A stretch of 34,726 bases of DNA from an uncultured Gammaproteobacteria bacterium (GCA_964523165.1 CAZFXZ010000003.1:1-34726); one strand, 5' to 3'; numbered from the stretch's first letter, positions 3,482 to 21,769 are shown. Translations and numbers: made by a program. The notes: generated from the sequence alone by a model not told the origin.

Positions 3482-3509
3482 TTGACAACAAGTCGCAATG
3501 TTTTATACT
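3482..3509 (+). promoter_or_regulatory. Sigma70-type promoter for the GC-rich orphan gene
   Basis: TTGACA (3482-3487), 16-nt spacer, TATACT (3504-3509). It is followed by GGGAGG (3524-3529) and ATG at 3535. Confidence 0.6.
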
Positions 3510-3534
3510 GCGGCTATCTTTTTGGGAGGCTGAC

Positions 3535-4068
3535 ATGCACACGCACACGCCGGAAGCTCGTCGGGCCAAGCTTTTGGGGGATATCGACAGGTCGGTTTTG
3601 CCTGAAGGTGAAAAAACCGCCCTGAAAAATTTCCTGACATCTTGGGATCTGGCCAGCGCTCAGGATGCCGCCAACAAACTATTTTCCTATCTGGTTGTTT
3701 GGCTGGCTGGTTGGTCGTTCGTCGATCAAGACGACATGAAAGCGATCCGTCGACAAACGGTCCGAGTTCGCGAGGCGAAAATCAAAAAAACTCGTCATCG
3801 CACGAGTCAAAAAAATGTCCTGAGACCACATCTGCTGGCTCGGGCCGTTGGTCGGACGATGTGGTACACTTTGCGAGCCATCACCATCAAACGTTTGAGT
3901 GGCTGGACCGGCGAACAAGACACGATTGTCGTTGTCAAAACCGCCGTGGCTCTCAAGGTTTGGGACTATCGTCGCTCCGACAAGTGGCACGACCAAGAAT
4001 GGCTGATCGAGGCCACGGCCGCCTGGCTGCTGGTCTTCGAAGGCATGTTTTACGCTCAGAAATCCTGA
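3535..4068 (+). CDS. Hypothetical protein (GC-rich orphan 1, Trp-rich, no recognised domain)
   Basis: The ORF track gives 3457-4068 from a TTG start. I prefer ATG 3535 because the promoter lies at 3482-3509 and a GGGAGG SD box sits 5 nt upstream. The overlapping ORFs 3642-4106(+) and 3679-3996(-) are GC-driven shadows. Confidence 0.6.
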   Translation: MHTHTPEARRAKLLGDIDRSVLPEGEKTALKNFLTSWDLASAQDAANKLFSYLVVWLAGWSFVDQDDMKAIRRQTVRVREAKIKKTRHRTSQKNVLRPHLLARAVGRTMWYTLRAITIKRLSGWTGEQDTIVVVKTAVALKVWDYRRSDKWHDQEWLIEATAAWLLVFEGMFYAQKS

Positions 4069-4090
4069 TGTTTTGTCAGGATTTTTTTAT
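4061..4090 (+). terminator. Intrinsic terminator hairpin shared by convergent genes
   Basis: AATCCTGA (4061-4068), loop TGTTTTG, TCAGGATT (4076-4083), then a TTTTTAT run. The TGA stop of 3535-4068 lies in the left arm. The stop of the minus-strand ORF 4076-5014 lies in the right arm. On the minus side only TTT follows the stem. Confidence 0.6.
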
Positions 4091-5014
4091 TGGCCCAAAC
4101 AGTTGATCTAAAATATCTTGGCCGGGTTGTTGGGCGCGACCAAAATGCGGGAAATGATGTATGCGCAAACCCGGATCGGCGTTGACTTCAATGATCCGAC
4201 CAAAAGATTTTTTTATATCCGGCGAGATGACATCGATACCAACGACGGCTAGGTTTAAAAATTTGGCCACCGCCACGGCCTGAGCTTTGATCCGAGCGGG
4301 GAGTTGATCTGTCACGTCAACGGTCGTGCCGCCAGTGTGTAAATTGGCGGTCTTGCGCAGGTAGATAATCCGGTCTTTGACCGGCCGACTGGTCAAAGTC
4401 AAATGCTGTTCTTTGAGAAATTTTTTAGTCAAAGCGTCTTTGGGGATCTCGACTTTATAAATTAGTTTGGCCTGATTTTTTTGATCAATGAGTTGACTGA
4501 CTGTTTGTTGTCCGTCGCCAACGACATAGGCCGGCAAGCGCAAGATGCTGTAAACTTTTTGATAGTTGATGACCAAAAGGCGATAGTCTCGGCCGACCAG
4601 CATTTTTTCGACCAAAAAACTTTTTTTGTTAATTAGCTTAATGGCTTGACGCAAAGCTTGGGGTGTCGTGATATCAACGCTGATATTTTTACCTTGCTTA
4701 GACGATAATGGTTTGACGACAACGCGACGATGCTGGCGCAAAAATTTTTGCGCTTCGGCTAGGTGGTGGCAATATTTATTGAGGGCTGTCGGGAAGCCTC
4801 CGGCTTTTAGTAAGGCGATGGTGGCATATTTGTTTTTGGCGATCAGAGCTGATGCCGCGCCACTTTGGTCGCTCAAGACTCCGCCTAGGACTAAGCGATT
4901 TTTTTTACCTTGGCTAAACAAATAAAAGTTACCCAGCGGATCGAGACGCTTTATTTTGAGGCCACGGTCTTTAGCCAGTTTGGCCAAAAAGGCTGAATAA
5001 GGATTGCCGGTCAC
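4076..5014 (-). CDS. ATP-grasp ligase resembling the cyanophycin synthetase G-domain (paralog 2)
   Basis: 312 aa with a GTG start. VVVKPLSSKQGKNI, YRLLVINYQKVYSILRLPAYVVGDGQQTVSQLIDQKN, LRKTANLHTGGTTVDVTD and IIEVNADPGLRIHHFP are colinear with the ATP-grasp domain of CphA. No Mur-ligase-like domain is present. Confidence 0.7.
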   Translation of the reverse strand: MTGNPYSAFLAKLAKDRGLKIKRLDPLGNFYLFSQGKKNRLVLGGVLSDQSGAASALIAKNKYATIALLKAGGFPTALNKYCHHLAEAQKFLRQHRRVVVKPLSSKQGKNISVDITTPQALRQAIKLINKKSFLVEKMLVGRDYRLLVINYQKVYSILRLPAYVVGDGQQTVSQLIDQKNQAKLIYKVEIPKDALTKKFLKEQHLTLTSRPVKDRIIYLRKTANLHTGGTTVDVTDQLPARIKAQAVAVAKFLNLAVVGIDVISPDIKKSFGRIIEVNADPGLRIHHFPHFGRAQQPGQDILDQLFGPIKKS

Positions 5015-5017
5015 AAA

Positions 5018-6037
5018 TTATTTTTTCTTAGTTTTGGTTTCCGGGAAAAGCAGATCAATGATGGCGCCGGCGGCATCGCGTTGTTTGCCTTGATAAGGAT
5101 CGTGGTGCATCGAGACCATCGGCGAATCATTGAGTTCGATGATTATATATTGACCACGTTTTGGCGCTTTGGTCACGTCGGTGGTCAAAAAATCAATGCC
5201 AGCATAAGCTAGACCGGGGATGGCTCGGATGGTTTTGACCGCCAATTTTTTTACGGCCGGATGGACAGCGGTGGTCACATCAATACTATCGCCACCGGTA
5301 GACAGATTAGAGTTGCGACGCAAAAAAACAAACTGCCCAACTTGGGGTTTGGACCGCAAAGATAGTTTTTGTTCACGCAGGACGCGCTTGACTTCATCGT
5401 CGACGGTGATGCCGACTAAGGCGTGACCGTGATCAAAACCCCGACGCGGATCGCTATTTTTTATTTTGATCAATTCTTTAATGTTGTGATTACCGTCACC
5501 AATGACGTTGGCTGGTATGCGATGCGTTGCGGCTACAAATTTTTCTCGAGTGGCAAAAATCCGATATTCCAAACCCTTGAACTCTTTTTCCACCAAAAAA
5601 TGAGCATAGCGGGCCGCGACTTGCTTGATGGCCTTGGCTGTTTGCTTGGCGTCGTTAAGCCCAACAAACACCATTTTGCCTTGGATGCCGTCATGAGGTT
5701 TAACGACGACCGGAAAACCGATTTTTTTAGCATAAGCCAAAGCTTGATCGGCTTGACGTCGTCGAAAGGTTTGACCTTGAGCGGTGGCGATGCCATTTTT
5801 TTCCAGCAAGACTTTGGTGGCTTGTTTGTTTTTGGTCAGCCAATAAGCCACCGAGCCGGTTTGGTTGATGCGTTGGCCGACGATCACCTCAAAATGTTTT
5901 TTGTATTGCAGCTCGACCAAACTATGCTTGGCAAAAACGCCGCTGCTAAACATTTTTTTTACTTTGACACCTCGGCGTTCGGCTTCGGCGGCGATCAGAT
6001 AAGTGCTGTAGTGATTAAAATTACTTCTTTTTAGCAT
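5018..6037 (-). CDS. ATP-grasp ligase resembling the cyanophycin synthetase G-domain (paralog 1)
   Basis: 339 aa. LIAAEAERRGVKV, NKQATKVLLEKNGIATAQG, IGFPVVVKPHDGIQGKMVFVGL, RIPANVIGDGNHNIKELIKIKNSDPRRG, LRRNSNLSTGGDSIDVT and IIELNDSPMVSMHH give a CphA-like order of motifs. Confidence 0.72.
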   Translation of the reverse strand: MLKRSNFNHYSTYLIAAEAERRGVKVKKMFSSGVFAKHSLVELQYKKHFEVIVGQRINQTGSVAYWLTKNKQATKVLLEKNGIATAQGQTFRRRQADQALAYAKKIGFPVVVKPHDGIQGKMVFVGLNDAKQTAKAIKQVAARYAHFLVEKEFKGLEYRIFATREKFVAATHRIPANVIGDGNHNIKELIKIKNSDPRRGFDHGHALVGITVDDEVKRVLREQKLSLRSKPQVGQFVFLRRNSNLSTGGDSIDVTTAVHPAVKKLAVKTIRAIPGLAYAGIDFLTTDVTKAPKRGQYIIIELNDSPMVSMHHDPYQGKQRDAAGAIIDLLFPETKTKKK

Positions 6038-6872: not shown

Positions 6873-6873
6873 A

Positions 6874-8295
6874 CTATTTTTTAGTCGGGTCGATGAAAAA
6901 ATATTTCAAGTCTTTGCGGCCGATGATCATCGAGTAATTAAGTTGGGTGCGCTCGGCGATACTGACGACCGATTCGATCTTTTTACCGCCCAAGTTGAAA
7001 GACAAATTGACGGCCGGTCGAATAGTTTGACCGTTGGCCGAATAAACTATTTTGACGCTGGCGATGTCGGGGTTTATCAAGCGCAGTTCGTTGGTTAGCT
7101 GGGCGTCAAAATATTTTACTTCCTCGCGATCAAAATCCACCGGCTTGGGAAAATTGTCAAAGTCGGTTAGAAGTTTTTCGTAACCTAATTTTTTAGCCAA
7201 CTCGCGATCAATTGACGACGAGTCGGCGCCCGTGTCTATTTTGGCATTGACCAAATGTTTTTCGCCGGTTTGCGGATGAAAGATGGCGACTTTTTCGATC
7301 CGACCAATGACTTTGCGACCGGAAATTTCTTGGACTTCTTTTTCGATAACATTGCCAAACAAATCTTTGGCGATCTGAATAGCCTTGTTGTGATTGTTGA
7401 CCTTCAAACCCTCGACGCGCTGTAGGCGTAAATACAGAGGAGCCAAATTGGCGTTTTGGATACTCAGGCCCGGTCGGGCGTTAACTTCCAAAATTACCGG
7501 ACCGTGCTCTTTGTCAAAAGCAATGTCGATGCCGGCAAAACCCAAGCCGACAGCTTGGGCCGCTTCCAAAGCCAAGTGCAAAACGCGATCCCAGTTGGGG
7601 ATTTGCAAACCGCGTAATTTCAAATTAGTCCCGGGCAAAGTTTCGATCGGTCGCTCAAACCATTTGCCCTTGATGACGGCGTTTGTCGTTTGACCGGTGG
7701 CGATATCTAAACCGATACCAATACCACCCTGACTTAAATTGGCTCGGCCGCCGGATTTGCGAGTCGGTAGGCGAAACATGGCCATGATTGGGATGTTGTT
7801 GTAGACGATAACGCGAATATCGGGCAGGCCCTTGTGAGCATAAAGTTTGAAATCAGGATCAAGCTTGAGTCTTTCTTCAAAAAAGGCGACATCAGGTAAA
7901 CTGGCTTTATTAAATTCACCGTCGAGAATGTCTAAGATGTGACGAAACAAATCGTCGCGACTCATTTCTTGTCCGCCCAAACGAACCCAATTACCATTTT
8001 TCTTTTGGCCGTAGGCGATAACAATACCTTCGCCCATCATGCCCAAGGCCGGCTTTAAGACAAAACTTTTGGGCAACTTGTCCCAGTCAAAATTAAACAA
8101 ATCAACACGACGCCTAATGACGGCGATGGTTTTGGGTACCGGGACCTTGGCTTTGATCAAAACTTTTTTAGTCTGAAGTTTGTGGTCGGCAATTTGAATA
8201 GCGTCGGCAAAATTGTTGGGCCGCAAAAACAGCAAACTACGAGCGTTGATGCCCAGCAAGTTATTGCTGGGGTTGAGTTTGTTTAGCATGGGCAA
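6874..8295 (-). CDS. RimK-related alpha-L-glutamate-ligase-like ATP-grasp fused to a C-terminal retropepsin-like (PF05618-type) domain
   Basis: The N-terminal ~320 aa carry GLPDIRVIVYNNIPIMAMFRLPTRKSGGRANLSQGGIGIGLD and ILEVNARPGLSIQNAN, as I recall for TIGR02291/PF14397-type ligases. The C-terminal ~140 aa carry AKIDTGADSSSI (a DTGA aspartic-protease signature) and IIGRKDLKYFFIDP. The track start at 8295 is TTG. ATG at 8289 (MLNKLNP...) is the more likely start. Confidence 0.72.
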   Translation of the reverse strand: MPMLNKLNPSNNLLGINARSLLFLRPNNFADAIQIADHKLQTKKVLIKAKVPVPKTIAVIRRRVDLFNFDWDKLPKSFVLKPALGMMGEGIVIAYGQKKNGNWVRLGGQEMSRDDLFRHILDILDGEFNKASLPDVAFFEERLKLDPDFKLYAHKGLPDIRVIVYNNIPIMAMFRLPTRKSGGRANLSQGGIGIGLDIATGQTTNAVIKGKWFERPIETLPGTNLKLRGLQIPNWDRVLHLALEAAQAVGLGFAGIDIAFDKEHGPVILEVNARPGLSIQNANLAPLYLRLQRVEGLKVNNHNKAIQIAKDLFGNVIEKEVQEISGRKVIGRIEKVAIFHPQTGEKHLVNAKIDTGADSSSIDRELAKKLGYEKLLTDFDNFPKPVDFDREEVKYFDAQLTNELRLINPDIASVKIVYSANGQTIRPAVNLSFNLGGKKIESVVSIAERTQLNYSMIIGRKDLKYFFIDPTKK

Positions 8296-9796
8296 TGATA
8301 TCGCGAAAACGGATGTATTCGATAAGACGCAAACCGCTCCAGCGACCGATTAAGAAATTGATCAAGATGGTTAGCAAGACCAGCTCGGGATAGCCCAACA
8401 ACAGCGTCCGAAAGATTTCCCAACTGGCAATGACATAACAAACTATCGACAAAGCCAAAGTTTCAACCGTCAGCTTGATAGCCGTCTGACTGCCTTGGTC
8501 GATTTGCGCGGCGATAAATTTTTCCGTCAAAACAACTAGTAATAAAATAGGGAAGATTGATAAGTTGGTAATTGTCGGTTGATCTAAAACGGTCCCGACA
8601 AAGAGCAAGAAGAAAATTACCAAACTGATAATTATCAAAACCAGGGCCATGCGAGGCATGTACAGCAAGCGAATGCGTTTGCCGGCTAAACGGGTAGCCG
8701 TACCAGCCGCCAAGATGATGACAAAAAACAACAAACCAAGCTGCAGGCCGGTAGCTAAAAATGACAAAGTGATAATGGTTGACGGATAAATACCAAAAGT
8801 TTTTAAGCCGATGATTTGACGAGCAAAGGCGATAATCGTGGCGATGACTGGTACGATCAAGATCAAAAATATGGTATTGAGAGCTACGCCCTGATTGACC
8901 ATATATTGGACGGCTTGCGACATGATGCCAAGTTTGCCAAAAAACGAATCACCGGCTTTGCTGTGCACGCCAATGATTTGATATTCCGAATCGGTGGTTT
9001 TTAGTTGATTGATCAGCTTGTCGGTGTCGGTGGTGCTGATCAAAGCATTGATGGCCGGCTCTTTAGCGACAATGACAAAGCGCGGTTTGAGTAAGTCAAA
9101 CAAGTTTTGCGCGATTTTGCGAGTCGCGGTTGGGCTTTGATCGCTGACGATCGCCAAGTTTTTGTTTTGCCAACCGTATTCGGCCGTGCTTTTTTGTGGA
9201 TCTTCAAGATTGGCCAAAACTTGGGCGGCTTCGACCAAAGCGTTTTGCCCGACCGTGCCAGCTGTCCAAGCGATGATCGATGAAGCCAGCTTGACGTTTT
9301 CTTTATTATCCCAAAACTGTTGGGCTAATTGTTTTTCGATGATATAGCCGGGCTGGTCGTCGAGGTTTGTAATATTTATTAGCAAAACATTTTGCGTATT
9401 AGCGTATTCACGCAAACTAGCCAGCTTATCTTGATTGATTGATTTGTCGGTCAAGAGTAAGACAATATCTTTTTCGACCGAGACAATAGTTTCGTCGGTA
9501 TTGAGATTTTGGCCGTCGCTGACTGTTAGTCGGACCTTGTAAGTACCGGGCGCGCGATAACTGTGGCTGACTTCCAAACCTTCGGCGCGATTGCCGTCAC
9601 CAAATTCCCAACGATAAGTCAGCGGTTTGTTTTGCTCGGTCGTCGAGTTGGCGGCCGAAAAAACGATTTGTCGATTAACTAAAACGTTACGATCGTCGCC
9701 GGCGTTGGCGGTGATAGTATTAAAATTTTGGGCGCCAACCAAACTGGGTAACAACAACCAAATTGTCAGAGTGACGGCTAGAAAAATTTTTTTCAT
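8261..9796 (-). CDS. Secreted PKD-domain protein with a C-terminal 7-TM module (the type usually fused to an inactive transglutaminase)
   Basis: Signal peptide MKKIFLAVTLTIWLLLPSLVGAQ. PKD motif YRWEFGDGNRAEG...HSYRAPGTYKVRLTVSDG. An unassigned region of ~190 aa follows, then about seven hydrophobic helices ending in GRWSGLRLIEYIRFRD. It overlaps the next gene's start by ~29-35 nt. Confidence 0.65.
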   Translation of the reverse strand: MKKIFLAVTLTIWLLLPSLVGAQNFNTITANAGDDRNVLVNRQIVFSAANSTTEQNKPLTYRWEFGDGNRAEGLEVSHSYRAPGTYKVRLTVSDGQNLNTDETIVSVEKDIVLLLTDKSINQDKLASLREYANTQNVLLINITNLDDQPGYIIEKQLAQQFWDNKENVKLASSIIAWTAGTVGQNALVEAAQVLANLEDPQKSTAEYGWQNKNLAIVSDQSPTATRKIAQNLFDLLKPRFVIVAKEPAINALISTTDTDKLINQLKTTDSEYQIIGVHSKAGDSFFGKLGIMSQAVQYMVNQGVALNTIFLILIVPVIATIIAFARQIIGLKTFGIYPSTIITLSFLATGLQLGLLFFVIILAAGTATRLAGKRIRLLYMPRMALVLIIISLVIFFLLFVGTVLDQPTITNLSIFPILLLVVLTEKFIAAQIDQGSQTAIKLTVETLALSIVCYVIASWEIFRTLLLGYPELVLLTILINFLIGRWSGLRLIEYIRFRDIIAHAKQTQPQQ

Positions 9797-9799
9797 ATT

Positions 9800-10288
9800 T
9801 TATTTATGAGGGATCAAAGCGGGACTATGAGCGCAAGTAATGGCGATGGCCAAAGCGTCGGCGGCGTCGTCGGGTTGCGGGATGGTTTGGAGTCGGAGAA
9901 GGGCGGCCACCATTTTTTGCACTTGTTTTTTGTCGGCCTGACCAAACGAAGTAATGGCTTGTTTGACCTGTAGGGGTGTGTATTCGCTGATCGGTAGTTT
10001 ATGACGTTGACCAAGAAGTAGTATCACGCCTCGAGCCTGACCGACGGCCAGAGCGGTTGTGACATTTTTGGCAAAAAATAATTCTTCAATGGCTAGTTTG
10101 TCGGGCTGATATTTTTTTATTAATTTTTCAAAATCATCAGCGATCGTCATGAGTCTTTGGGCCAAAGGTTGTTTGGCTGGCGTACTTATGACACCGTAAG
10201 CCACGGCCGTGATAGAGCTGGTGGTTTGTTTGATAACGCCCCAGCCGGTGGTGGCCACGCCCGGATCAATACCGATGATCGTGGGCAT
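9800..10288 (-). CDS. ruvC: Crossover junction endodeoxyribonuclease RuvC
   Basis: 162 aa. IIGIDPGVATTGWGVI at the N-terminus and a typical RuvC length and C-terminus (DAADALAIAITCA). Confidence 0.9.
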   Translation of the reverse strand: MPTIIGIDPGVATTGWGVIKQTTSSITAVAYGVISTPAKQPLAQRLMTIADDFEKLIKKYQPDKLAIEELFFAKNVTTALAVGQARGVILLLGQRHKLPISEYTPLQVKQAITSFGQADKKQVQKMVAALLRLQTIPQPDDAADALAIAITCAHSPALIPHK

Positions 10289-10297
10289 AATTAAATT

Positions 10298-11017
10298 TTA
10301 ATAGTTAACGTTGCAAAAAACTTCCGTCACGTCTTCGTCGTCAGACAGGGCCTCAACGATTTGCTTGATGATTTCCGTTGTCGGCTCGTCGAGATCGAGG
10401 GTTTCGTTGGCGATAAATTCCAAATTGTCTTGTTCGATTTTATAGCCGGCGTTTATCAGTCGATCTTTGACTTGATTAAGTTCTGATGGAGCGGTCATGA
10501 CAATAACGGTTTGATCTTCGACAATGACGTCTTGAGCTCCGGCTTCGATAGCTGCCAATTCGGCTTTGTCGGTGTCGGTAGTTTCAGCCAAAATGATCAG
10601 GCCGCGCTGACTAAACATCCAAGCCACGCTGTTGGGTCCGCCCAAGCTGCCACCATGGCGAGTAAAAATATGCTTGATTGACGCCACGGTCCGATTGCGA
10701 TTGTCCGTCAAAGTTTTGACATAAAAAGCGCTGCCGGCCGGACCAAAACCTTCATAGGCTATTTCTTCGATTTGTACGCCGTCGCTGTTTTCGCCCGTAC
10801 CGCGTTTGACGGCTCGATCGATGTTGTCTTTGGGCATGTTGGCCGCTCGGGCCTTGTCGATAGCCAAACGCAATTTAAAATTAGTATCAGGATCGCCACC
10901 CAATTCTTGAGCTGCCAAAGTGATAGCTTTGGCTAGTTTGGTAAAAGCGCTGGCGCGTTTGGCGTCAGCGGCAAATTTTTGGCGTTTAGTCGTCGCCCAC
11001 TTACTGTGTCCAGACAT
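10298..11017 (-). CDS. yebC: YebC/PmpR family DNA-binding transcriptional regulator
   Basis: 239 aa. MSGHSKWATTKRQKFAADAKRA is the family-defining N-terminus. The gene sits 9 nt upstream of ruvC. Confidence 0.9.
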   Translation of the reverse strand: MSGHSKWATTKRQKFAADAKRASAFTKLAKAITLAAQELGGDPDTNFKLRLAIDKARAANMPKDNIDRAVKRGTGENSDGVQIEEIAYEGFGPAGSAFYVKTLTDNRNRTVASIKHIFTRHGGSLGGPNSVAWMFSQRGLIILAETTDTDKAELAAIEAGAQDVIVEDQTVIVMTAPSELNQVKDRLINAGYKIEQDNLEFIANETLDLDEPTTEIIKQIVEALSDDEDVTEVFCNVNY

Positions 11018-11064
11018 AGATAATATGCCTATAGGCTAACAAAAATATGATCAAAAATCAAGAT

Positions 11065-11099
11065 GAAAAAAATAAAAAAGCGAGAAATGATTTTCTCGC
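11065..11099 (-). terminator. Intrinsic terminator after orphan 2
   Basis: The minus strand reads GCGAGAAA, loop ATCA, TTTCTCGC, then TTTTTTATTTTTTT. Confidence 0.7.
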
Positions 11100-11110
11100 G
11101 TTGAACGCTC

Positions 11111-11599
11111 TTATCCGCTGATAATGATATAGTTGCCTTGGCGGTTGTCCTGACGATGACGCCGCTTTTTCTCGTCAACCCGATCGTGCCAACGAGCCAT
11201 GGTATCGAAGCGGTCGCATCGTGCCACTTCCACGCCGAGTTCTTCGAGTCGCGTTGCGACTCTCCAAACTTCTTTGTGCCAGTCGTTGATCCACGGACCA
11301 CGACGATCCATGAAGTCTCGCATGGCTTCGACGTCGTCGGGCCGGTTTTGGACCAGCCAGCGGGCCCAAGCGGGGATGACCGCGTTGTAGAGCGTGTCGT
11401 ACTGTTGGTTTATTTCGGAGAAGCGATAGGCTTCCCAGAATTCCTCGGGCGACCGGGCTTTGGCCGCCGCTTCCTTGATCAGGCGACGATACTTTTTGCC
11501 GATCGGATATGTCGTCCAGTCAAACATGAGGATCATGTTGACGCGGCCGTTGATGATCCGATTGGCCTCGTCCCGGATTTCTGCAAATGTGCGTGACAT
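11111..11599 (-). CDS. Hypothetical protein (GC-rich orphan 2, Trp/Arg-rich)
   Basis: 162 aa. GGGGGAGGAG lies directly upstream of the ATG. It has its own terminator. The opposite-strand ORF 11138-11596 is a shadow. Confidence 0.6.
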   Translation of the reverse strand: MSRTFAEIRDEANRIINGRVNMILMFDWTTYPIGKKYRRLIKEAAAKARSPEEFWEAYRFSEINQQYDTLYNAVIPAWARWLVQNRPDDVEAMRDFMDRRGPWINDWHKEVWRVATRLEELGVEVARCDRFDTMARWHDRVDEKKRRHRQDNRQGNYIIISG

Positions 11600-11661
11600 C
11601 TCCTCCCCCTGCGTGATAATGGGTTTTTAAACCATTTGAAGATAAAAGTCAATAAACTTTT

Positions 11662-11703
11662 GATGAAATAAAAAAACGGGACGACTGATTTTGAAGCTCC
11701 CGT
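11662..11703 (-). terminator. Intrinsic terminator after orphan 3
   Basis: The minus strand reads ACGGGA, a 16-nt loop, TCCCGT, then TTTTTTTATTTC. Confidence 0.6.
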
Positions 11704-11708
11704 TGAGA

Positions 11709-12296
11709 TTATTTCTGTTGAACTGCCTGCGATTTGCGGGCCTTGGTCAGGCGCTGTCGTAGCTCATTGAGCTGGGGATGGTGGTCGGCGAGCTCGGCCG
11801 CCTGCACCGCCCTGGCGAGTCGCTTGGAGTCATCGTCGACCAGCCCGACGAGCTTGTCGATGACATCGCGATGGGCGCGCATCGCATTATACTGGACCTG
11901 GTACGAGGTGCACCAGGGGCAGACGTGGATGAAAACGCTCTCCCACTCCTGCCAGGTCGTCGCCCGCTTTTTCATCCCCTCGTAGACCTCGGGGAAGTAG
12001 TCGGCGCCACCTTCCATGGTCTGGCAGAGGCTCACCCAGTCCGCGAACGTCTTGGTCTGCCGAATGGCACGCCTGACGATCTTTTTCACCGCTCTCGTCA
12101 CTGGCCAGTGATAGTCGCGGATGTGGTCCCACTGGTAATACCGGTAGACGGCCAGGCACTGCTCAAGAGTGTCAGTGCGCGGCAGTACCTTCCTCATGGA
12201 GAACGAACGCTGTACGTCGAGAGAAGCGCTCTCTCGTCGGCCGATGGCGGCCGCCAGATCGGGGAACGCCTCCGCGAGCGTCAGGACTCTGTCCAT
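11709..12296 (-). CDS. Hypothetical protein (GC-rich orphan 3; contains CPWC)
   Basis: The track gives 11709-12308. The first ATG is part of ATGGAGGGTTCCATG, so GGAGGG acts as an SD box for the second ATG (complement of 12294-12296). The opposite-strand ORF 11778-12392 is a shadow. Confidence 0.6.
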   Translation of the reverse strand: MDRVLTLAEAFPDLAAAIGRRESASLDVQRSFSMRKVLPRTDTLEQCLAVYRYYQWDHIRDYHWPVTRAVKKIVRRAIRQTKTFADWVSLCQTMEGGADYFPEVYEGMKKRATTWQEWESVFIHVCPWCTSYQVQYNAMRAHRDVIDKLVGLVDDDSKRLARAVQAAELADHHPQLNELRQRLTKARKSQAVQQK

Positions 12297-12326
12297 GGAA
12301 CCCTCCATTGGTTAGGACGTCCTTTA

Positions 12327-12355
12327 CTTTTACTCCAGGATAACCCGCTCGTCAA
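12327..12355 (-). promoter_or_regulatory. Sigma70-type promoter for orphan 3
   Basis: The minus strand reads TTGACG (12355-12350), a 17-nt spacer, then TAAAAG (12332-12327). Confidence 0.5.
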
Positions 12356-12408
12356 GCAAGGCGGTCTTTACAGAAAACATTTTGACGTATAATCTAAAAG
12401 CACCACTT

Positions 12409-13608
12409 ATGCTAAAAATAAAAATCAAAAACTTTGCCCCGTTACGCCAGTCAGGGGAATGGCAAAAAAAATCTCGTCAGCTTGCGGCCCTTAAAGCGCC
12501 TGATTTTGTAACTCATCGGCCGGACTTTGCCAGACTCAAACAAGTCAATAAAAAGTTTAAAAACATTAAACAGATAATCGTCGTAGCTAACGGCGGATCG
12601 CGCAACACGACTTTGGCTTTGGTCAACAGCTTGTCGCATTTTTATCCCAAGGCCCCAAAATTTTTCTTTGTCTCTTCTGGTCAGCCCGATTATTTGGCAC
12701 AAATCAGTCGGCAGTGCCCAGCGGCCAACACTTTGATTTTTGCTGTCTCTAAATCGGGGACTAACATAAACTCGCTCGAGCCATTACTGTATTTTATTGC
12801 CAAAAAATATAGCCAGATCGTTGTCATAACACAAGATGATGGTAACCCGTTAGTAAATATTGCTCAAAATTATAATTTTCCTATTATTGTTCATCCGCCG
12901 ATCTCTGGACGATTTTCGGGTCGGACCAGCTCGACGTTAGCCCCGGCAAGTTGGTTGGGTTTGGACGTGGAAAAATTTAACAATGACGTCGTGGCGGCTT
13001 ACAAAAAATATCGCCAATCGGCTTTAACTGTCGCTCAATTTTTAGCCCAGCTCAACGCCGGCGGTTATTCAGAAATTTTTACCCCGATTTATTCGCAGTA
13101 TGTCAGTGGCTTTTTGCCTCTGCTTGTCCAATTGATTCACGAAAGTACTGGTCAGTTGGGTCGTGGCTTTACGATCTTTGGCGACGCTGGGCCGGAAACC
13201 CAACATCATACCAATCAGCGATTTTTTGGCGGGCAACAAAACGTCGTCGGGTTTTTTGTCCGACAATTAAATTTTGTTGATGATAAAAAGATCATGATCG
13301 CTAAAAATTTAAAAAATTTACCATATCGTGACGGCGTTTTGGGCCAGCTCGACGGTCGATCGTTGGCTGGTGGTTTGTCGGCCGACGTCGAGGCGGTCAT
13401 AAAAAATACTGAAGAAAATAAAATTCCTCACGTGGTCATTGATATCGACAAGTGGAACGTTGAATCAGCGGCTGAATTTTTAGCTTTTTGGCAACTCCTG
13501 ACTTATTATTTGGCTTTATTGCTAAATCTCGACCCTTTTGATCAGCCACAAGTTGAGCGGGCCAAAAAAATCAGCTGGCAGTATCGTTTAAGCCCTAGAC
13601 AAAAATAA
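12409..13608 (+). CDS. pgi: Glucose-6-phosphate isomerase-like SIS-domain protein
   Basis: VVANGGSRNT, AVSKSGTNINSLEP and ISGRFSGRTSSTLAPASWLG resemble the PGI signature regions. The track start at 12382 is a TTG that overlaps a TATAAT box (12388-12393), so ATG 12409 is preferred. Confidence 0.6.
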   Translation: MLKIKIKNFAPLRQSGEWQKKSRQLAALKAPDFVTHRPDFARLKQVNKKFKNIKQIIVVANGGSRNTTLALVNSLSHFYPKAPKFFFVSSGQPDYLAQISRQCPAANTLIFAVSKSGTNINSLEPLLYFIAKKYSQIVVITQDDGNPLVNIAQNYNFPIIVHPPISGRFSGRTSSTLAPASWLGLDVEKFNNDVVAAYKKYRQSALTVAQFLAQLNAGGYSEIFTPIYSQYVSGFLPLLVQLIHESTGQLGRGFTIFGDAGPETQHHTNQRFFGGQQNVVGFFVRQLNFVDDKKIMIAKNLKNLPYRDGVLGQLDGRSLAGGLSADVEAVIKNTEENKIPHVVIDIDKWNVESAAEFLAFWQLLTYYLALLLNLDPFDQPQVERAKKISWQYRLSPRQK

Positions 13609-13646
13609 TATTAACCGCTAGGCTAAAAATAACCGTTCATTGTTTT

Positions 13647-13704: not shown

Positions 13705-13733
13705 TTGACAAAGATAGGTAGGCCAATTAAAGT
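13705..13733 (+). promoter_or_regulatory. Sigma70-type promoter for orphan 4
   Basis: TTGACA (13705-13710), 17-nt spacer, TAAAGT (13728-13733). GGAGG then lies 5 nt before ATG 13755. Confidence 0.6.
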
Positions 13734-13754
13734 GACAACAACTCGGAGGTGGGC

Positions 13755-14150
13755 ATGAACAGATGTTCTTTGATCGTTACGGATAAAACCCTGACGAGCA
13801 TCTACAACCGACCGGATGGCAACACTACGACCGGCGCGTTGTTGGTCATCCATGCGGCTGACGCTTCGGCTGATCCGACGCTTTGGATCGGCCGGGTCGG
13901 CGACGAATGGCAATTCGAGATCTGTCTCAACGATCGTCGAACCCAACTGACCGGCCGGGTGCAGGGGTTTTTCACCGTCAAATTTCACGATGATGAAAAT
14001 CGCCGCGGTCTGCTGATCGAAGTCAGAAATTATGATCAGTTTTTGGGCCTGTTGCGGCTCAACTTGACCATGCGGCCGATGAAGATTGACTATCGGGAGT
14101 TGGCCGACAGCCACTGGTGTGTCAATCCGGCCGCGATCAGTCTGCATTAA
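13755..14150 (+). CDS. Hypothetical protein (GC-rich orphan 4, beta-rich)
   Basis: The track gives 13749 (GTG). ATG 13755 has better SD spacing. The 231-aa minus ORF 13623-14318 runs across the promoter and terminator and is Arg-rich, so I treat it as a shadow. Confidence 0.6.
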   Translation: MNRCSLIVTDKTLTSIYNRPDGNTTTGALLVIHAADASADPTLWIGRVGDEWQFEICLNDRRTQLTGRVQGFFTVKFHDDENRRGLLIEVRNYDQFLGLLRLNLTMRPMKIDYRELADSHWCVNPAAISLH

Positions 14151-14195
14151 TAGCGCGTTTACCCGACGTGCTTTTTTATTTGCTATACTGTTAAC

Positions 14196-18988: not shown

Positions 18989-19040
18989 TGGTTTAAAAAT
19001 CGCTTACGATTATCGCTGTCATTATACATTAGTAAGTTAT

Positions 19041-19116: not shown

Positions 19117-19127
19117 ATAAAAAATAG

Positions 19128-19164
19128 AGAGGTCGTCCCGCAAGGCGGGATTCGCCGCTCCAAT
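19128..19164 (+). repeat. Partial 3' copy of tRNA-Gly with the T-arm replaced by a different hairpin
   Basis: The copy reads AGAGGTCG, then TCCCGCAAGGCGGGA, then TTCGCCGCTCCAAT. The gene reads AGAGGTCG, then CCGGTTCGAGTCCGG, then TTCGCCGCTCCAAT. The replaced block is 15 nt in both. Confidence 0.7.
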
Positions 19165-19174
19165 GACATTAAAG

Positions 19175-19263
19175 AGTAGTTGGTAATTTGTAGTTAGTAG
19201 TTAGGATGTTATGATAAGGCCGTTGCCCTAATTACAAAATACGAATTGCTAACTACTTTTTTT
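19175..19263 (+). other. Long AT-rich imperfect hairpin followed by a T7 run (terminator or small RNA candidate)
   Basis: Two 31-nt arms, 19175-19205 and 19227-19257, pair with 25 Watson-Crick pairs, 3 G-U pairs and 3 mismatches. The loop is 21 nt. TTTTTTT lies at 19257-19263. Confidence 0.45.
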
Positions 19264-19264
19264 G

Positions 19265-19313
19265 AGCCGAGGTGGCGGAACTGTCCCGAAGGGACCCCTT
19301 CGGGGGTAGACGC
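19265..19313 (+). repeat. Partial 5' copy of tRNA-Leu interrupted in the D-loop by a 22-nt GC palindrome
   Basis: AGCCGAGGTGGCGGAACTG (19265-19283) and GTAGACGC (19306-19313) equal 19571-19597 of the real gene. The insert is TCCCGAAGGGACCCCTTCGGGG. Confidence 0.75.
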
Positions 19314-19316
19314 TTT

Positions 19317-19571
19317 ATGAAATATTATGTTTATATATTAAAATCAAAAAATAAGAATTGGTTTTATATTGGTTGCACTAAAGATCTTAACAAGCGATTA
19401 GAAAAACATAATAAAGGAGCTGTTAGGTCTACTAAGGCCTATAAACAATTTGAACCAATATTCATGAGAGAATTTGAAAATTTAAGCCAAGCTAGAAAAT
19501 ATGAAGATCATTTAAAATCACCCAAAGGTTATTTAGAAAAATTAGAAATTATAAAAAAATATAAAGATTAA
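19317..19571 (+). CDS. Small GIY-YIG nuclease family protein
   Basis: 84 aa from ATG 19317: MKYYVYILKSKNKNWFYIGCTKDLNKRLEKHNKG...REFENLSQARKYEDHLKS, showing GIY / YIG / R / E features of the YhbQ/UPF0213 type. The track start at 19272 would read through the tRNA-like stub. The TAA stop ends at 19571 and abuts the tRNA. Confidence 0.75.
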   Translation: MKYYVYILKSKNKNWFYIGCTKDLNKRLEKHNKGAVRSTKAYKQFEPIFMREFENLSQARKYEDHLKSPKGYLEKLEIIKKYKD

Positions 19572-19660
19572 GCCGAGGTGGCGGAACTGGTAGACGCGAA
19601 GGACTTAAAATCCTTTGAGAATTAAATCTCGTGCGGGTTCGATTCCCGCTCTCGGCACCA
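19572..19660 (+). tRNA. tRNA-Leu (anticodon TAA), long variable arm, CCA encoded
   Basis: GCCGAGG acceptor, anticodon stem-loop AAGGA-CTTAAAA-TCCTT, T-arm GCGGG-TTCGATT-CCCGC, 3' end TCTCGGC-A-CCA. Confidence 0.9.
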
Positions 19661-19665
19661 CAAAA

Positions 19666-19692
19666 CCCATCCGTGAAGGATGGAGTTTTTTT
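19666..19692 (+). terminator. Intrinsic terminator after tRNA-Leu
   Basis: CCATCC, loop GTGAA, GGATGG, then AG plus TTTTTTT. Confidence 0.7.
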
Positions 19693-19728
19693 ATTAAAAA
19701 ACCCCAATTGGTAAAAACCACGGGGTTT
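19690..19728 (-). terminator. Intrinsic terminator after pyrC
   Basis: The minus strand reads AAACCCC...GGGGTTT followed by TTTAATAAAAAAA. Confidence 0.5.
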
Positions 19729-19739
19729 AGAATAGACGC

Positions 19740-20768
19740 TCAGGCCACGCGCCACTCCAGAGTTTCGCCGCTCCAGAAAGGCACGACGCCGGCGATTTCG
19801 GCCGGCACCATCCAGGGGTCGACGTACAGTTCGATGGTCTGGTCGGTGGCTGGGAGTTTGTGAAACTCCCGGAAAAAACCGGAGGTAAAGCCGGCCAGTC
19901 CGCCCAAGACGTTGTATGTATTAAAGATCTCTGCCAGTCCGGGCAGTAAGACCGGCGCGGAAAACACCCCACACGAGCCATGGCCCGATTCTTTTTTGAT
20001 CCGCAGATGCGGCGCCGAGTCGGAGCCCAGCATAAATCGGGGATGGCCGTCGAATACGACTTCTTGCAAAGCCCGCCGGTCGCCGGGGTTTTTTGGTACG
20101 GGCATGCACATATTGTGCGGCCGCGTGCCGGTGCCGATGACATCATCGAGCGTACAGATGAGATGATGAAGCGTGATGGTGGCCGCCACGCCGGTTCGAG
20201 CCGACTTGATCATTTCGACGCCCGCCTTGGTCGAGACGTGTTCGAGCACGACGCGCAGTTTGTCGAATTTTTTGATCAACTCGACAAACATCGGCAGAAA
20301 ATTGCTCTCACGATCCATGATCGTTGAGTCAGGCGTGGCGTGCTCGCCATGGATGAGCAGAGGCATGTCCAGATCGGACATGGCGGCCAGCACTTTGCCG
20401 ATGTGACGAGCGGCCAGATCGGCCGGCCCGGACGAAGAATTGGTCGTCATGCCGCGCGGGTAGACCTTGACGGCAAAGACTCCGGCCTGATGAGCTTGCT
20501 CGATCATGTCCGGCTTTGTGTCGTCGGTCAGATATATGGTCATCAGTGGTTGGAAGTCATGATGACCGGCCATTCGGCAAGCGTCGATGATGCTCTGTTT
20601 GTACGTCCTCGCTTCGACCGCCGTGGTGATCGGCGGCGTCAGGTTGGGCATGACCACGGCGGCGGCGAAATCTCTGGCCGTCAGCGGCGCGACGGCTGTC
20701 AGCATGGCGTGGTCGCGAAAATGGACATGGCCATCGATCGGCCGCGGGATCATCATGTGGTCTGTCAC
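19740..20768 (-). CDS. pyrC: Dihydroorotase, E. coli-type (class II) PyrC
   Basis: 342 aa. It is colinear with E. coli PyrC, including the metal and active-site motifs DGHVHFRD (HxH), FAVKVYP (carboxylated Lys), LLIHGE, VLEHVST and LGSDSAPH. GTG start with GGAGG 5 nt upstream. Visibly GC-rich. Confidence 0.88.
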   Translation of the reverse strand: MTDHMMIPRPIDGHVHFRDHAMLTAVAPLTARDFAAAVVMPNLTPPITTAVEARTYKQSIIDACRMAGHHDFQPLMTIYLTDDTKPDMIEQAHQAGVFAVKVYPRGMTTNSSSGPADLAARHIGKVLAAMSDLDMPLLIHGEHATPDSTIMDRESNFLPMFVELIKKFDKLRVVLEHVSTKAGVEMIKSARTGVAATITLHHLICTLDDVIGTGTRPHNMCMPVPKNPGDRRALQEVVFDGHPRFMLGSDSAPHLRIKKESGHGSCGVFSAPVLLPGLAEIFNTYNVLGGLAGFTSGFFREFHKLPATDQTIELYVDPWMVPAEIAGVVPFWSGETLEWRVA

Positions 20769-20838
20769 GGCAACCTCCTTTATGGGTTGTGAAGATCTGG
20801 TCGCATCTAATCACAACCACCCTAATTTTGCAAGATTA

Positions 20839-20867
20839 TTGACAAAACATTATGGCCAGAGTAAATT
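20839..20867 (+). promoter_or_regulatory. Sigma70-type promoter driving the leader of orphan 5
   Basis: TTGACA (20839-20844), 17-nt spacer, TAAATT (20862-20867). Confidence 0.55.
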
Positions 20868-20877
20868 ACAAAATAAT

Positions 20878-21002
20878 ATGCTAAGTTACAATCTCGGTTT
20901 GATTGTCAGCTTGATTATCGCCTCACGGCGCGAGGTTTTTGTGGCTTAGATACAGAGAGCAGTTAGCGATTACCACAAACCTCGCTTCGGCGAGGTTTTT
21001 TG
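20878..21002 (+). promoter_or_regulatory. Structured 5' leader: 23-codon hydrophobic mini-ORF, alternative pairing and intrinsic terminator
   Basis: The mini-ORF 20878-20949 encodes MLSYNLGLIVSLIIASRREVFVA. GAGGTTTTTGTGG (20932-20944) can pair with CCACAAACCTC (20973-20983). That pairing competes with the terminator AACCTCGC-TTCG-GCGAGGTT plus T-run (20978-21002). Confidence 0.45.
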
Positions 21003-21045
21003 ATAGAGCCGTTCTTTTTGGTCACCACATCACAGGAGGTTTTGG

Positions 21046-21672
21046 ATGAAAGCTTGTCGCAAGGATGTTGGTCCATTTTCTGACCAACATGATCTGACTA
21101 CGGCCTTGCCAACACAGTGGCAAATCTTGGCCGACGCCGGTGCGGCTGCCGTCATGCGCTGGACTGACAAAAGGCTGTTGGATCACTGTCGCAAGCTGAC
21201 CGAGCAAGCTGGGCAAAATGATCTGCCTTTGCAAGTTTGCGCCGTAATCCCCATGCGGAGTCAAAGAGTCGTCGGGTCGAATATGGTCCGGCGCCATGAA
21301 GTTGATCACGTCTCCGACTTTGAGGCCGTGCCGACTCGGCCGTATGTGATTTGCGGTCTGACGTTGAGCTGGGAATCTCTGCTGCGCGTCCCGCCGTATA
21401 TGGCGGATAAGATTCTCAAAAACACCAATCAGCAGTATGGTTCAAAGGCTCGCGGCCTGACGCTGGCTGAGGGTGTCTGCTTGGCCCTGGCCTATCCTCG
21501 ACTGCTGAACAGTGTCTCGATGTCACTGATCGGCTCGTGTGTCGGCACCAATCACATCACGACGATTCGGCGTGGAGAAGATGGCGCTATCGTCGTCGAG
21601 CCCCTACACTGGGGGGAGACGCCGATGGGACAAAACATCACGCCATGCTGCGAAGGAGTCGTTGCGCTTTAA
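21046..21672 (+). CDS. Hypothetical protein (GC-rich orphan 5)
   Basis: 208 aa. AGGAGG lies 6 nt upstream of the ATG. I recognise no domain. The minus ORF 21022-21309 is a shadow. Confidence 0.6.
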   Translation: MKACRKDVGPFSDQHDLTTALPTQWQILADAGAAAVMRWTDKRLLDHCRKLTEQAGQNDLPLQVCAVIPMRSQRVVGSNMVRRHEVDHVSDFEAVPTRPYVICGLTLSWESLLRVPPYMADKILKNTNQQYGSKARGLTLAEGVCLALAYPRLLNSVSMSLIGSCVGTNHITTIRRGEDGAIVVEPLHWGETPMGQNITPCCEGVVAL

Positions 21673-21730
21673 CCGTTTTACCAAAAACGGTTTTTTTATC
21701 CCGTCGTTCGCGAGCGACGGGATTTATTTG
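21671..21730 (+). terminator. Tandem intrinsic terminators after orphan 5
   Basis: First AACCGTTTT-ACCA-AAAACGGTT plus TTTTTTT. Then ATCCCGTCG-TTCGCGAG-CGACGGGAT plus TTATTT. Confidence 0.7.
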
Positions 21731-21769
21731 GCTTGTTTTTTGCTCATAAAAAAGCTAAACTAGCACTAT

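Follow-up and report, generated by a model that had tools for sequence, protein, structure and literature searches.

The question raised by this locus is why six GC-rich open reading frames (ORFs), each preceded by a strong Shine-Dalgarno (SD) box, are scattered among core genes that start without one. In the window, by which we mean the whole 34.7-kb stretch that was analysed (34,726 nucleotides), the GC content of the six cassette ORFs was 0.54-0.62 as compared with 0.29-0.50 for the 25 other ORFs. Third codon positions showed the greatest rise, with GC3 values of 0.60, 0.67, 0.80, 0.67, 0.73 and 0.62 for orphans 1, 2, 3 and 4, pyrC and orphan 6, respectively, and no overlap between the ranges of the cassettes (0.60-0.80) and the 25 other genes (0.15-0.55; Mann-Whitney p=2.7e-6). 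GC1 was also raised in the cassettes and their amino-acid composition was shifted (Arg 9.7% vs 4.1%), and the GC content dropped sharply at the cassette borders, within AT-rich promoters and terminators. A GGAGG-type box was located 2-6 nt upstream of all six cassette starts and of none of the 25 others (Fisher p=1.4e-6). Although 29 GGAGG pentamers occur on the two strands of the window, only at the six cassettes is one placed in SD geometry before the start of a long ORF. By contrast, a T at position -1 was found at 20 of the 25 core starts and at none of the six cassette starts (p=6e-4), an excess in the core genes over the background of 0.30 (binomial p=3.5e-7). The core starts were also looser, with folding energies over -30..+33 of -6.7 kcal/mol as compared with -13.8 kcal/mol for the cassettes (p=0.004).

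These values bear out what a sequence-only reading had judged by eye, namely that the six ORFs are GC-richer than their surroundings, that each has a canonical SD box and that some 25 other starts lack a comparable one. Its claim that long shadow ORFs appear only at the cassettes held as an enrichment but not as exclusivity, since such ORFs were also found elsewhere. The comparison of GC3 and codon usage that it had proposed placed the cassettes outside the core range and closer to one another: the RSCU values of each cassette correlated at 0.50-0.85 with the other cassettes and at -0.03 to 0.56 with the core genes. In both gene classes, GCC was used far more than GCG, while GCA, GGA, GTA and AGR were avoided. 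The cassettes share one codon dialect, with the quirks of the host retained.

Each cassette resembles a separate small transcription unit at an operon boundary, with a putative sigma-70-type promoter, usually a leader of 15-30 nt with a strong SD box, the GC3-rich ORF and a predicted intrinsic terminator. The candidate promoters are clear in four of the six units, whereas that of orphan 2 is weak and pyrC has a poor one. Three of the six best matches in a promoter scan were located exactly upstream of cassettes (orphans 1, 4 and 6), and promoter-like matches overall were not above shuffles (34 vs 26.7 +/- 5.2). A hairpin plus T-run site followed all six cassettes, that of orphan 1 being common with a convergent ATP-grasp gene. 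No flanking repeats, mobility genes, integrase or att sites were found around the cassettes.

The promoter of cassette 1, TTGACA-16-TATACT (3482..3509, +), was the best scan match of the region with 11/12 matches, and there is overlap between its -35 box and that of a divergent PBP1A promoter. The SD box GGGAGG (3524..3529, +) lies 5 nt upstream of the ATG of orphan 1 (3535..4068, +; 177 aa, GC 0.54). Downstream, a bidirectional hairpin that was read directly (ATCCTGA-N7-TCAGGAT then a T-run, 4062..4091, either strand) is common to orphan 1 and its convergent ATP-grasp neighbour, and the stop codons of both genes lie within its stem arms. Two alleles of orphan 1 occurred together in the source samples, as a bubble at 3558-4148 in X1 and X2. 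The 18 differences within the ORF were distributed as 6/0/12 over the codon positions, a pattern that points to a protein-coding gene. No relatives of orphan 1 were found among viral or JGI contigs.

Cassettes 2 and 3 are both on the minus strand. Orphan 2 (11111..11599; 162 aa, GC 0.56) has the SD box GGGGGAGGAG (11600..11609) directly upstream of its ATG, with GGAGG 2 nt from the start, or a spacing of 5 nt with GGGGG as the pairing core. Its promoter-like box, TTGACT-16-TTAAAA (11625..11652), was read directly, has a weak -10 and fell under the scan threshold, and its terminator, GCGAGAAAATCATTTCTCGC then a T-run (11070..11099), was identified by the scan. Orphan 3 (11709..12296; 195 aa, GC 0.62) contains a CPWC motif and is preceded by the SD box GGAGGG (12301..12306), 4 nt from the ATG at 12296, and by a promoter-like box read directly as TTGACG-17-TAAAAG (12327..12355). 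Its terminator, ACGGGA-N16-TCCCGT then T7 (11669..11703), was read by eye because its loop exceeds the length that the scan accepts. Both orphans are located in a 1.9-kb tract (10866-12723) that is almost identical to the relative in X3-X6, which differs by ~15-19% from this genome in core genes elsewhere. The tract also takes in parts of yebC and a pgi-like gene, neither of which is GC-enriched. Orphan 3 differed from the sister-species copy at one nucleotide, and 9 of the 13 differences in orphan 2 were at third positions of the frame given here.

For cassette 4, the scan identified the promoter TTGACA-17-TAAAGT (13705..13733, +) and a terminator hairpin then T-run (14152..14180, +). The SD box GGAGG (13745..13749, +) is located 5 nt upstream of the ATG of orphan 4 (13755..14150, +; 131 aa, GC 0.54). 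A syntenic orthologue is present in the sister-species locus L092 (76% amino-acid and 82.6% nucleotide identity; 22/13/34 differences by codon position), at a divergence on a par with that of the flanking core genes. The GC3 value of this orthologue was 0.65 as compared with 0.39 in the flanking gene. The -35 box, -10 box, UTR, SD box and terminator stem were identical in the two loci while the promoter spacer had diverged, which indicates conservation of the putative expression signals.

The pyrC gene (19740..20768, -; 342 aa, GTG start, GC 0.59) encodes a full-length class II homodimeric-type dihydroorotase (TIGR00856, 354.6 bits vs a cut-off of 293). It has an AGGAGG box (20774..20779, -) 5 nt upstream of the GTG, a poor promoter-like box read by eye (TTGCAA-17-TTAGAT) and a terminator that was read directly (AAACCCC-N16-GGGGTTT then a T-run, 19686..19728, -); a second bidirectional hairpin, from the scan (19666-19684), adjoins tRNA-Leu. 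The best homologue among 5.8 billion proteins searched was at most 51% identical, and the nearest relatives (44-51% identity) were in CPR-type contigs. In most of the other CPR-type contigs examined, pyrC and pyrD are SD-led amid SD-less neighbours. In L086, L087, L090 and L094, AGGAGG-like boxes precede both genes while the neighbours are SD-less or leaderless-looking, and in L094 such boxes also precede pyrF and pyrE. The closest relative of pyrC, in L093, is without an SD box.

The scan placed the promoter of cassette 6, TTGACA-17-TAAATT, at 20839..20867 (+). It is followed by a leader of ~170 nt (20874..21045, +; fold z-score -2.1) with two hairpin-plus-T-run elements (20920-20945, 20966-21004) and, within it, the SD box AGGAGG (21034-21039, +). 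The leader matched no Rfam family and may be an attenuator. Orphan 6 (21046..21672, +; 208 aa, GC 0.56) had no real homologue among 1.84e9 representatives and its predicted structure had a pLDDT of 44; an RNA-library contig of 311 nt covers 21159-21469, inside the ORF. Two tandem terminators follow (21671..21733, +; scan), and the sister species, which is without orphan 6, retains this terminator region ahead of ruvB. In the Buchananbacteria loci L001 and L020, the place upstream of ruvB is taken by cassettes that are likewise GC-rich but not homologous.

No match to the five orphans was found in Pfam, NCBIfam, PHROGs or PADLOC, and the only hit of any cassette was that of pyrC to TIGR00856, as expected from the earlier remark that five cassettes have no recognisable motif and that the other is pyrC. 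The orphans had no detectable homologues and no confident folds, the AF2 model of orphan 4 being poor. No relatives of orphans 3, 4 and 6 were found outside this species group, the search of 5.8e9 proteins with orphan 3 retrieved orphan 3 itself only, and IMG/VR yielded no relative. Judged from their sequences, orphans 1, 2 and 4 and pyrC are protein-coding; for orphans 3 and 6, which have no diverged homologue, the case for coding is built on GC3 specific to the frame, on SD geometry and on one RNA contig. Presence and absence in relatives, a comparison also proposed earlier, gave a mixed picture: pyrC and orphan 6 had zero depth in X3-X6 and are missing in that relative, orphan 1 is probably missing from the sister species, orphans 2 and 3 are near-identical and orphan 4 has an orthologue. 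The alignments indicate a recombination mosaic along with presence/absence differences between sister species, and cassettes have been gained and lost quickly, apparently through homologous recombination in the core genes beside them. Also in the window are an integrative element and a GIY-YIG gene not present in the sister species.

Could the pattern be an artefact of chimeric assembly, or of GC-rich, non-coding DNA with spurious ORFs? GC-rich DNA does give rise to long ORFs in either direction, and for orphans 2 and 3 a periodicity score favoured the other strand. However, all junctions were reproduced in contigs from two source-study runs and one 2025 study, at an even depth of ~9x, and chimerism, against which a check had been advised, is excluded since independent Logan contigs span every border. 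Moreover, the codon-position substitution patterns back the frames of orphans 1, 2 and 4, pyrC is full-length, and the strand given carries the SD box and start as well as the promoter and terminator, which makes an artefact extremely improbable. Recombination hot spots might instead have raised the GC content through GC-biased gene conversion, with the SD boxes secondary because GC-rich starts fold. The positions of the cassettes match those of recombination tracts and allelic bubbles, and GC3 is the most elevated, but the yebC and pgi-like parts of the exchanged tract are not enriched, the GC content falls abruptly in the AT-rich promoters and terminators, and GC1 and the amino acids, arginine in particular, are shifted too; we consider this explanation very unlikely.

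The sequence-only reading had proposed independent acquisitions from a higher-GC, SD-using donor. If recent, and from one or more donors outside the CPR, their composition and SD boxes would be unameliorated donor traits. Lawrence and Ochman reportedly developed an amelioration model for horizontally acquired genomic islets of atypical composition. The cassettes resemble such islets in their GC content and codon usage, in their patchiness among sister species (pyrC and orphan 6 being absent, as probably is orphan 1), in being self-contained units of which some lie at operon boundaries or beside a tRNA gene, and in that five lack any family. Unlike islets, they have no identifiable donor or donor-like homologue (pyrC <=51% identity, the orphans without matches) and no flanking integrase, mobility genes, repeats or att sites, and a single dialect, with host-specific codon quirks retained, is common to all six. 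Orphan 4 is syntenic and of core-like divergence in the sister species, yet its GC3 and expression signals are unchanged, so that this orthologue pair shows no amelioration; the terminator and -35 box of orphan 1 are interlocked with neighbouring core genes; and an SD box also precedes pyrC and pyrD in other CPR-type contigs. We regard donor import as quite unlikely: the donor part of the proposal is largely at odds with the lack of a homologue and with the single dialect, while the acquisition part is favoured by the rapid gain and loss. Phage morons, often of deviant GC content, stand between conserved genes as autonomous units of promoter, ORF and terminator, and the cassettes are like them in architecture and in their placement between genes adjacent in relatives. 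They could be moron-like cargo of a CPR-specific mobile pool (phages, plasmids and integrative elements of Patescibacteria) with a GC-richer, SD-using style, dropped into intergenic slots and passed among related species. The single dialect of unrelated genes, the fast turnover with a 1.9-kb tract moved between species, and the integrative element and GIY-YIG gene would agree with this. Unlike morons, however, the cassettes are found among the housekeeping operons of a cellular chromosome, with core genes on both sides of every unit, and the window itself is no prophage; no phage relatives were found in PHROGs or IMG/VR, pyrC is a housekeeping-type enzyme with relatives inside the CPR, and the observed transfer was by homologous recombination in core flanks with no mobile element. 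Mobile cargo is unlikely, although the orphans may have come from one foreign pool such as CPR phages or plasmids.

On balance, the six units are probably a resident accessory gene class in the genome of an ultra-small, uncultured, Buchananbacteria-like member of the CPR/Patescibacteria, SD-led beside an SD-less core. The second alternative of the sequence-only reading, a separately translated class in an otherwise SD-less genome, fits the SD counts (6/6 vs 0/25) and the signals kept in L092. Core genes, which appear often to be tightly operon-coupled or to have very short leaders, would initiate without SD where the start region is rich in A/U, folds weakly and has U at -1. The GC-rich cassette mRNAs, with a tighter fold at the start, would need SD/anti-SD pairing for 30S recruitment; their SD boxes would be read by the ribosome of this organism, and mRNA folding may explain why high GC and SD go together. 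If the 16S rRNA of this genome were without CCUCC, as reported for about half of the Parcubacteria, SD pairing could not work in the way proposed. The GC-rich, SD-led state would be maintained and not a fading trace of recent import, while the genes themselves would be gained, lost and replaced quickly among sister species, for the most part through homologous recombination in the adjoining core genes. Five units would be lineage-restricted orphans for soluble proteins and one a pyrimidine-pathway enzyme, from a pathway that is usually SD-led in CPR-type contigs.

Scharff et al. are said to have linked SD-less starts to locally unstructured mRNA in plastids and bacteria, and U(-1) reportedly pairs with A37 of the initiator tRNA (Esposito et al. 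2003). The SD-less core starts likewise are weakly folded with U at -1 and the SD-led starts are tighter, but here the two modes are divided between two compositional gene classes of one genome. For Parcubacteria, the same broad lineage, the part of Tsurumaki et al. 2022 (RNA 28:1041; PMC9297842) drawn on here analyses rRNA and ribosomal proteins, and reports loss or reduction of the anti-SD in a subgroup, reduced use of SD and anti-SD and frequent absence of bS21. This offers a published basis for SD-poor core genes, and an SD-led, GC-rich gene class is not described in that part of the study. In Bacteroidia, translation is SD-independent, with the anti-SD sequestered by bS21/bS18/bS6, and rpsU keeps a strong SD (PMC7797042, PMC9976891, PMC13000453). 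As in Bacteroidia, most genes, here the core genes of the window, are SD-less with an A/U-rich start context and a few have a strong, well-placed SD, but the few genes with an SD are pyrC and GC-rich accessory or orphan genes instead of a ribosomal autoregulatory gene, and the context signal is U at -1 instead of upstream adenines. In a test that pooled 26 CPR loci and relied on a crude ORF caller, GC3 and SD were weakly associated (odds ratio 2.6, p=0.02), and a Firmicutes control was shifted in the same direction.

The six cassettes, orphan 1 (3535-4068, plus strand), orphan 2 (11111-11599, minus), orphan 3 (11709-12296, minus), orphan 4 (13755-14150, plus), pyrC (19740-20768, minus) and orphan 6 (21046-21672, plus), had G+C contents of 0.54-0.62 and GC3 values of 0.60-0.80. 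The GC3 values of the 25 other ORFs in the window, here referred to as core genes, were 0.15-0.55, with zero overlap between the two classes (Mann-Whitney p = 2.7e-6). A GGAGG-type box was located immediately 5' of the start in all six cassettes, as compared to none of the 25 core genes (Fisher p = 1.4e-6). The sequence-only reading of this DNA had described by eye both the higher G+C content of the six ORFs and a Shine-Dalgarno (SD) box at each of them and at none of the other starts inspected, and the computed values agree with it on both points. Its statement that long shadow ORFs occur only at the cassettes holds in part, in that they are enriched in the cassettes but are also present elsewhere. 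The window contains 29 GGAGG pentamers, of which only six, all at cassettes, are placed in SD geometry ahead of a long ORF; the original list of cassettes is thus complete for the window. A gene caller based on G1-G2 periodicity mis-called strands in the GC-rich islands and placed 2 of the 6 cassettes on the wrong strand.

The two classes also differed in other features of the start site. A T at position -1 was found at 20 of the 25 core starts and at none of the six cassette starts (binomial p = 3.5e-7 for a base frequency of 0.30), a pattern reminiscent of a Kozak-like context, U(-1)AUG, that would serve initiation without an SD. The core starts compared include those at 3444, 5014, 6037, 9796, 10288, 11017 and on the 22795 side. 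The mean folding energy of the segment from -30 to +33 was -6.7 kcal/mol for the core genes versus -13.8 kcal/mol for the cassettes (p = 0.004). Taken together with the SD boxes, these contrasts indicate that the classes differ in the entire design of the start site. Coupling is tight for many core genes, which overlap or are separated by 1-10 nt, and some operon-first core genes have a -10 box so near the ATG, such as TATACT located 6 nt 5' of the ATG at 14196, that the leader has to be very short or missing. Using one crude ORF caller for both groups, we obtained SD frequencies of 14% for CPR relatives versus 51% for Firmicutes-like loci. A pooled test of the association between GC3 and SD in 26 CPR loci gave a weak result that is only weakly informative because of the crudeness of the caller.

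Three of the six top matches of a promoter scan in the region were located exactly 5' of cassettes 1, 4 and 6. By direct reading, cassette 3 has a promoter-like box (TTGACG-17-TAAAAG) and cassette 2 a weak one (TTGACT-16-TTAAAA), while pyrC has a poor candidate only; the TTGAC-type promoters proposed earlier for four of the six cassettes were thereby recovered, as was the weak candidate box at pyrC. A hairpin followed by a T-run was found 3' of each unit, as had also been proposed. The signals of cassette 1 are interlocked with those of the neighbouring genes through an overlapping -35 box and a common terminator hairpin. It is transcribed divergently from PBP1A (TATAAT, minus strand) from back-to-back promoters at 3464-3509, in which the -35 boxes overlap (TTGACAAC / GTTGTCAA), and a bidirectional terminator hairpin at 4062-4091, whose stem arms contain the TGA stops of the two genes, serves orphan 1 on the plus strand and the last ATP-grasp gene on the minus strand. 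Orphan 6 is preceded by a leader of about 170 nt (20874-21045) that contains two hairpin-plus-T-run elements and a mini-ORF of 23 codons, with a fold z-score of -2.1, and which may be an attenuator. No Rfam family matched any of the cassettes or the leader of orphan 6.

Independent contigs across the junctions and an even depth of about 9x rule out that the cassettes are artefacts of the assembly. The order GIY-YIG, pyrC, orphan 6 and ruvB was reproduced in an independent Logan contig from the source study (L081), further Logan contigs from that study, among them L085, span orphans 2-4, and contigs from a different study (L083, L084 and L092) cover orphans 2, 3 and 4. Differences by codon position were 6/0/12 for two alleles of orphan 1 and 22/13/34 for orphan 4, and 9 of the 13 differences in orphan 2 were at third positions, indicating that these three orphans are protein-coding in the stated frames. 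For orphans 3 and 6, which lack a diverged homologue, coding support comes from frame-specific GC3 values (0.80 and 0.62) and SD geometry. A 311-nt contig from a 2025 RNA-Seq library (X16) matched orphan 6 at 21159-21469 with 3 differences, which adds weak coding support; no core gene was covered across the 20 kb in this library, and the contig could reflect either expression or carry-over of DNA.

The five orphans code for accessory proteins that are restricted to the lineage and under purifying selection. These proteins are predicted soluble, have a high content of Arg, Trp and Cys and show no paralogy to each other. No recognizable motif had been seen in them at the outset, and searches of Pfam, PHROGs, PADLOC and NCBIfam were likewise empty. 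Among 5.8 billion proteins, orphans 3 and 4 matched only themselves or copies from the sister species. When all 1.84 billion representatives were scanned by HMMER with orphan 6, the only matches were two low-complexity repeat proteins, which we judged to be spurious, and scans of viral and JGI metagenome contigs with orphans 1 and 2 gave no matches. The AlphaFold models were of low confidence, with pLDDT values of 44 for orphan 6 and 36 for orphan 4.

The sequence-only reading had offered two alternatives, of which the first attributed the cassettes to a higher-GC, SD-using donor and the second to a separately translated gene class. Their composition and codon usage do deviate from those of the host. 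The remaining observations are at odds with the attribution to a donor. No close homologues were identified in a donor lineage, the best relatives of pyrC being at most 51% identical and orphans 3, 4 and 6 having no relatives beyond the species group. In a locus of the sister species, L092, an orthologue of orphan 4 is located at the same site, with 76% identity at the protein level and 82.6% at the DNA level, which is close to the 78% of the whole locus. The GC3 values of the two copies were 0.67 and 0.65 at a divergence of 17%, versus 0.39-0.44 for the flanking gene, and thus there was no sign of amelioration towards host composition in this single, unpolarised pair. Moreover, the two copies agree fully in the -35 and -10 boxes, 5' UTR, SD box and terminator stem while the promoter spacer has diverged, a pattern expected of functional signals under selection. 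The six cassettes have a codon dialect in common, with a preference for CTG, GTC, GGC, ACG and TCG/TCC, that retains quirks of the host, such as GCC far above GCG and avoidance of GCA, GGA, GTA and AGR. No flanking direct or inverted repeats and no mobility genes were found at the cassette borders, and the sole integrase in the window (27563-29194) is located away from the cassettes. As judged from these comparisons, from the interlocking of cassette 1 with its flanking genes and from the SD boxes at pyr genes of CPR-like contigs, it is most improbable that a high-GC donor recently supplied the cassettes.

Known systems of movable or variable genes were also considered. Like phage morons, the cassettes are autonomous promoter-ORF-terminator units placed between conserved genes, and the slot at ruvB varies in the Buchananbacteria loci L001 and L020; unlike morons, they are flanked by PBP1A, yebC, ruvC, ruvB and GT-C genes rather than by phage or prophage genes, and they had no phage relatives in PHROGs or IMG/VR. 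Integron gene cassettes were rejected since each unit has its own promoter and no repeated attC-like element was seen, and variable-protein genes of the DGR type since the window contains no repeat pair and no RT. A 64-bp patch of differences in orphan 2 is mostly synonymous and hence not DGR-like. The closest characterised dual-initiation system is that of the Bacteroidia, in which bS21/bS18/bS6 sequester the anti-SD and an SD is retained by a small number of genes (PMC7797042, PMC9976891, PMC13000453); the likeness lies in the great majority of genes without an SD, which in the window includes all 25 core genes. No paper was found that describes for CPR bacteria a class of GC-rich genes led by an SD.

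Statements on the genome are based on the 34,726-base window, which is a complete contig of an NCBI metagenome-assembled genome, and the retrieved loci. The RuvB protein of the window was most similar to those of Candidatus Buchananbacteria MAGs (73-74% identity), followed by other Patescibacteria/CPR. Near-identical sequences were present in two wastewater runs from 2019 (X1 and X2) and, at low depth, in several further studies, and a diverged relative, with core genes about 15-19% different from the window, was present in four bioreactor runs from 2025 (X3-X6). Homologues of the cassette genes were found in none of 80 ruvB-anchored loci, of which the nearest genomes had only 74% RuvB identity.

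As the comparison of these sequences shows, the cassettes are a fast-moving part of the genome. Orphan 1 formed an assembly bubble in the source samples, with alleles at depths of 5.7 and about 4.8 that differ by 6-9% over 3558-4148 and a single sequence on either side; it was unmatched in the X3-X6 relative. No coverage of pyrC and orphan 6 was obtained in any of the four runs X3-X6, and the ruvB contig of the relative starts to match only at the terminator of orphan 6. In L001 and L020, the slot 5' of ruvB is occupied by different GC-rich ORFs without homology to those of the window, and in L020 the ORF comes with a perfect TTGACA-17-TATAAT promoter, a GGAG box and a terminator. The GC-rich ORF of 389 aa 5' of ruvB in L001 is separated from a terminator by about 140 nt of GC-rich and apparently structured sequence (2560-2700), possibly a leader RNA or small RNA. 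Over 10866-12723, the X3-X6 relative shows no differences from the window other than the 64-bp patch and one base, and divergence returns abruptly at both ends. This tract takes in orphans 2 and 3 together with the 5' end of yebC and a 5' portion of the pgi-like gene. It marks a recent interspecies exchange through homologous recombination, the end points of which lie in core genes, and shows how such genes move: 1.9 kb with two orphans is near-identical in species with a divergence of about 15-19% in other regions. The patch itself (11483-11546), with 13 mostly synonymous differences, appears to be a mosaic inside the mosaic. A GIY-YIG ORF at 19117-19571, between the genes for tRNA-Gly and tRNA-Leu, is absent from the X3 relative, in which a contig of 1044 bp carries both tRNA genes only about 105 nt apart, indicating that the endonuclease gene was inserted in the window lineage.

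The mechanism proposed for the window is that core mRNAs, which are A/U-rich and open at the start with U(-1), would be initiated without an SD, and that cassette mRNAs, which are GC-rich and more tightly folded, would rely on SD/anti-SD pairing. This model fits the association of SD-less starts with a local absence of mRNA structure as well as a pairing that has been proposed between U(-1) and A37 of the initiator tRNA. A further, rather unlikely reading of these data is that Parcubacteria-type CPR bacteria maintain two initiation channels by selection, one free of SD for housekeeping genes, with U(-1)AUG, unstructured starts or leaderless mRNAs, and one dependent on SD for GC-rich, fast-exchanged flexible genes and a few pathways such as pyrimidine synthesis. 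If the two-channel model were true, the flexible gene set could be switched as a block through control of anti-SD availability, for which bS21 status, changes in the 16S tail and RNAs that mimic the anti-SD are candidates. For Parcubacteria, a published analysis describes bS21 as often missing and an anti-SD motif as detected in only about half of the genomes (PMC9297842). No 16S 3' end was present in the window or in any retrieved locus; if the 16S rRNA were without an anti-SD, the conserved GGAGG boxes would have to be read by non-canonical means. Should the class be real and general, CPR gene finders and start-site models would need two initiation models, the equation of atypical GC with recent transfer would be misleading in CPR genomes, and the minimal translation apparatus of these ultra-small bacteria would have a built-in distinction between accessory and core genes, with a bearing on the evolution of SD-independent initiation.

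The one cassette with a recognizable function had been read as pyrC, and the match to TIGR00856 bears this out at full length and above the curated equivalog cut-off (354.6 bits versus 292.95, covering residues 6-341 of 342). Pfam Amidohydro_1 also matched, and the product is a full-length class II dihydroorotase of the homodimeric, E. coli type. Pyrimidine synthesis is impossible with pyrC alone. The contigs with the best pyrC relatives (at most 51% identity among the 5.8 billion proteins) look CPR-like and usually have pyrC after pyrD. In four of them (L086, L087, L090 and L094), AAGGAG/AGGAGG boxes were seen at the pyr genes and were absent at their neighbours, and in three of these four the pyr genes were somewhat richer in GC than the neighbours; the single closest relative, in L093, was without an SD. 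L094, a CPR-like contig of 588 kb, has an SD-like box at each of pyrD, pyrC, pyrF and pyrE (6922-10811), and several of the neighbouring genes have TATAAT or TAGAAT 5-8 nt 5' of the ATG and look leaderless. On L087, a Paceibacterota contig, two ORFs of 107 and 79 aa (7295-7975) located directly 3' of pyrD-pyrC have AGGAGGTG boxes and are richer in GC than the flanking core genes.
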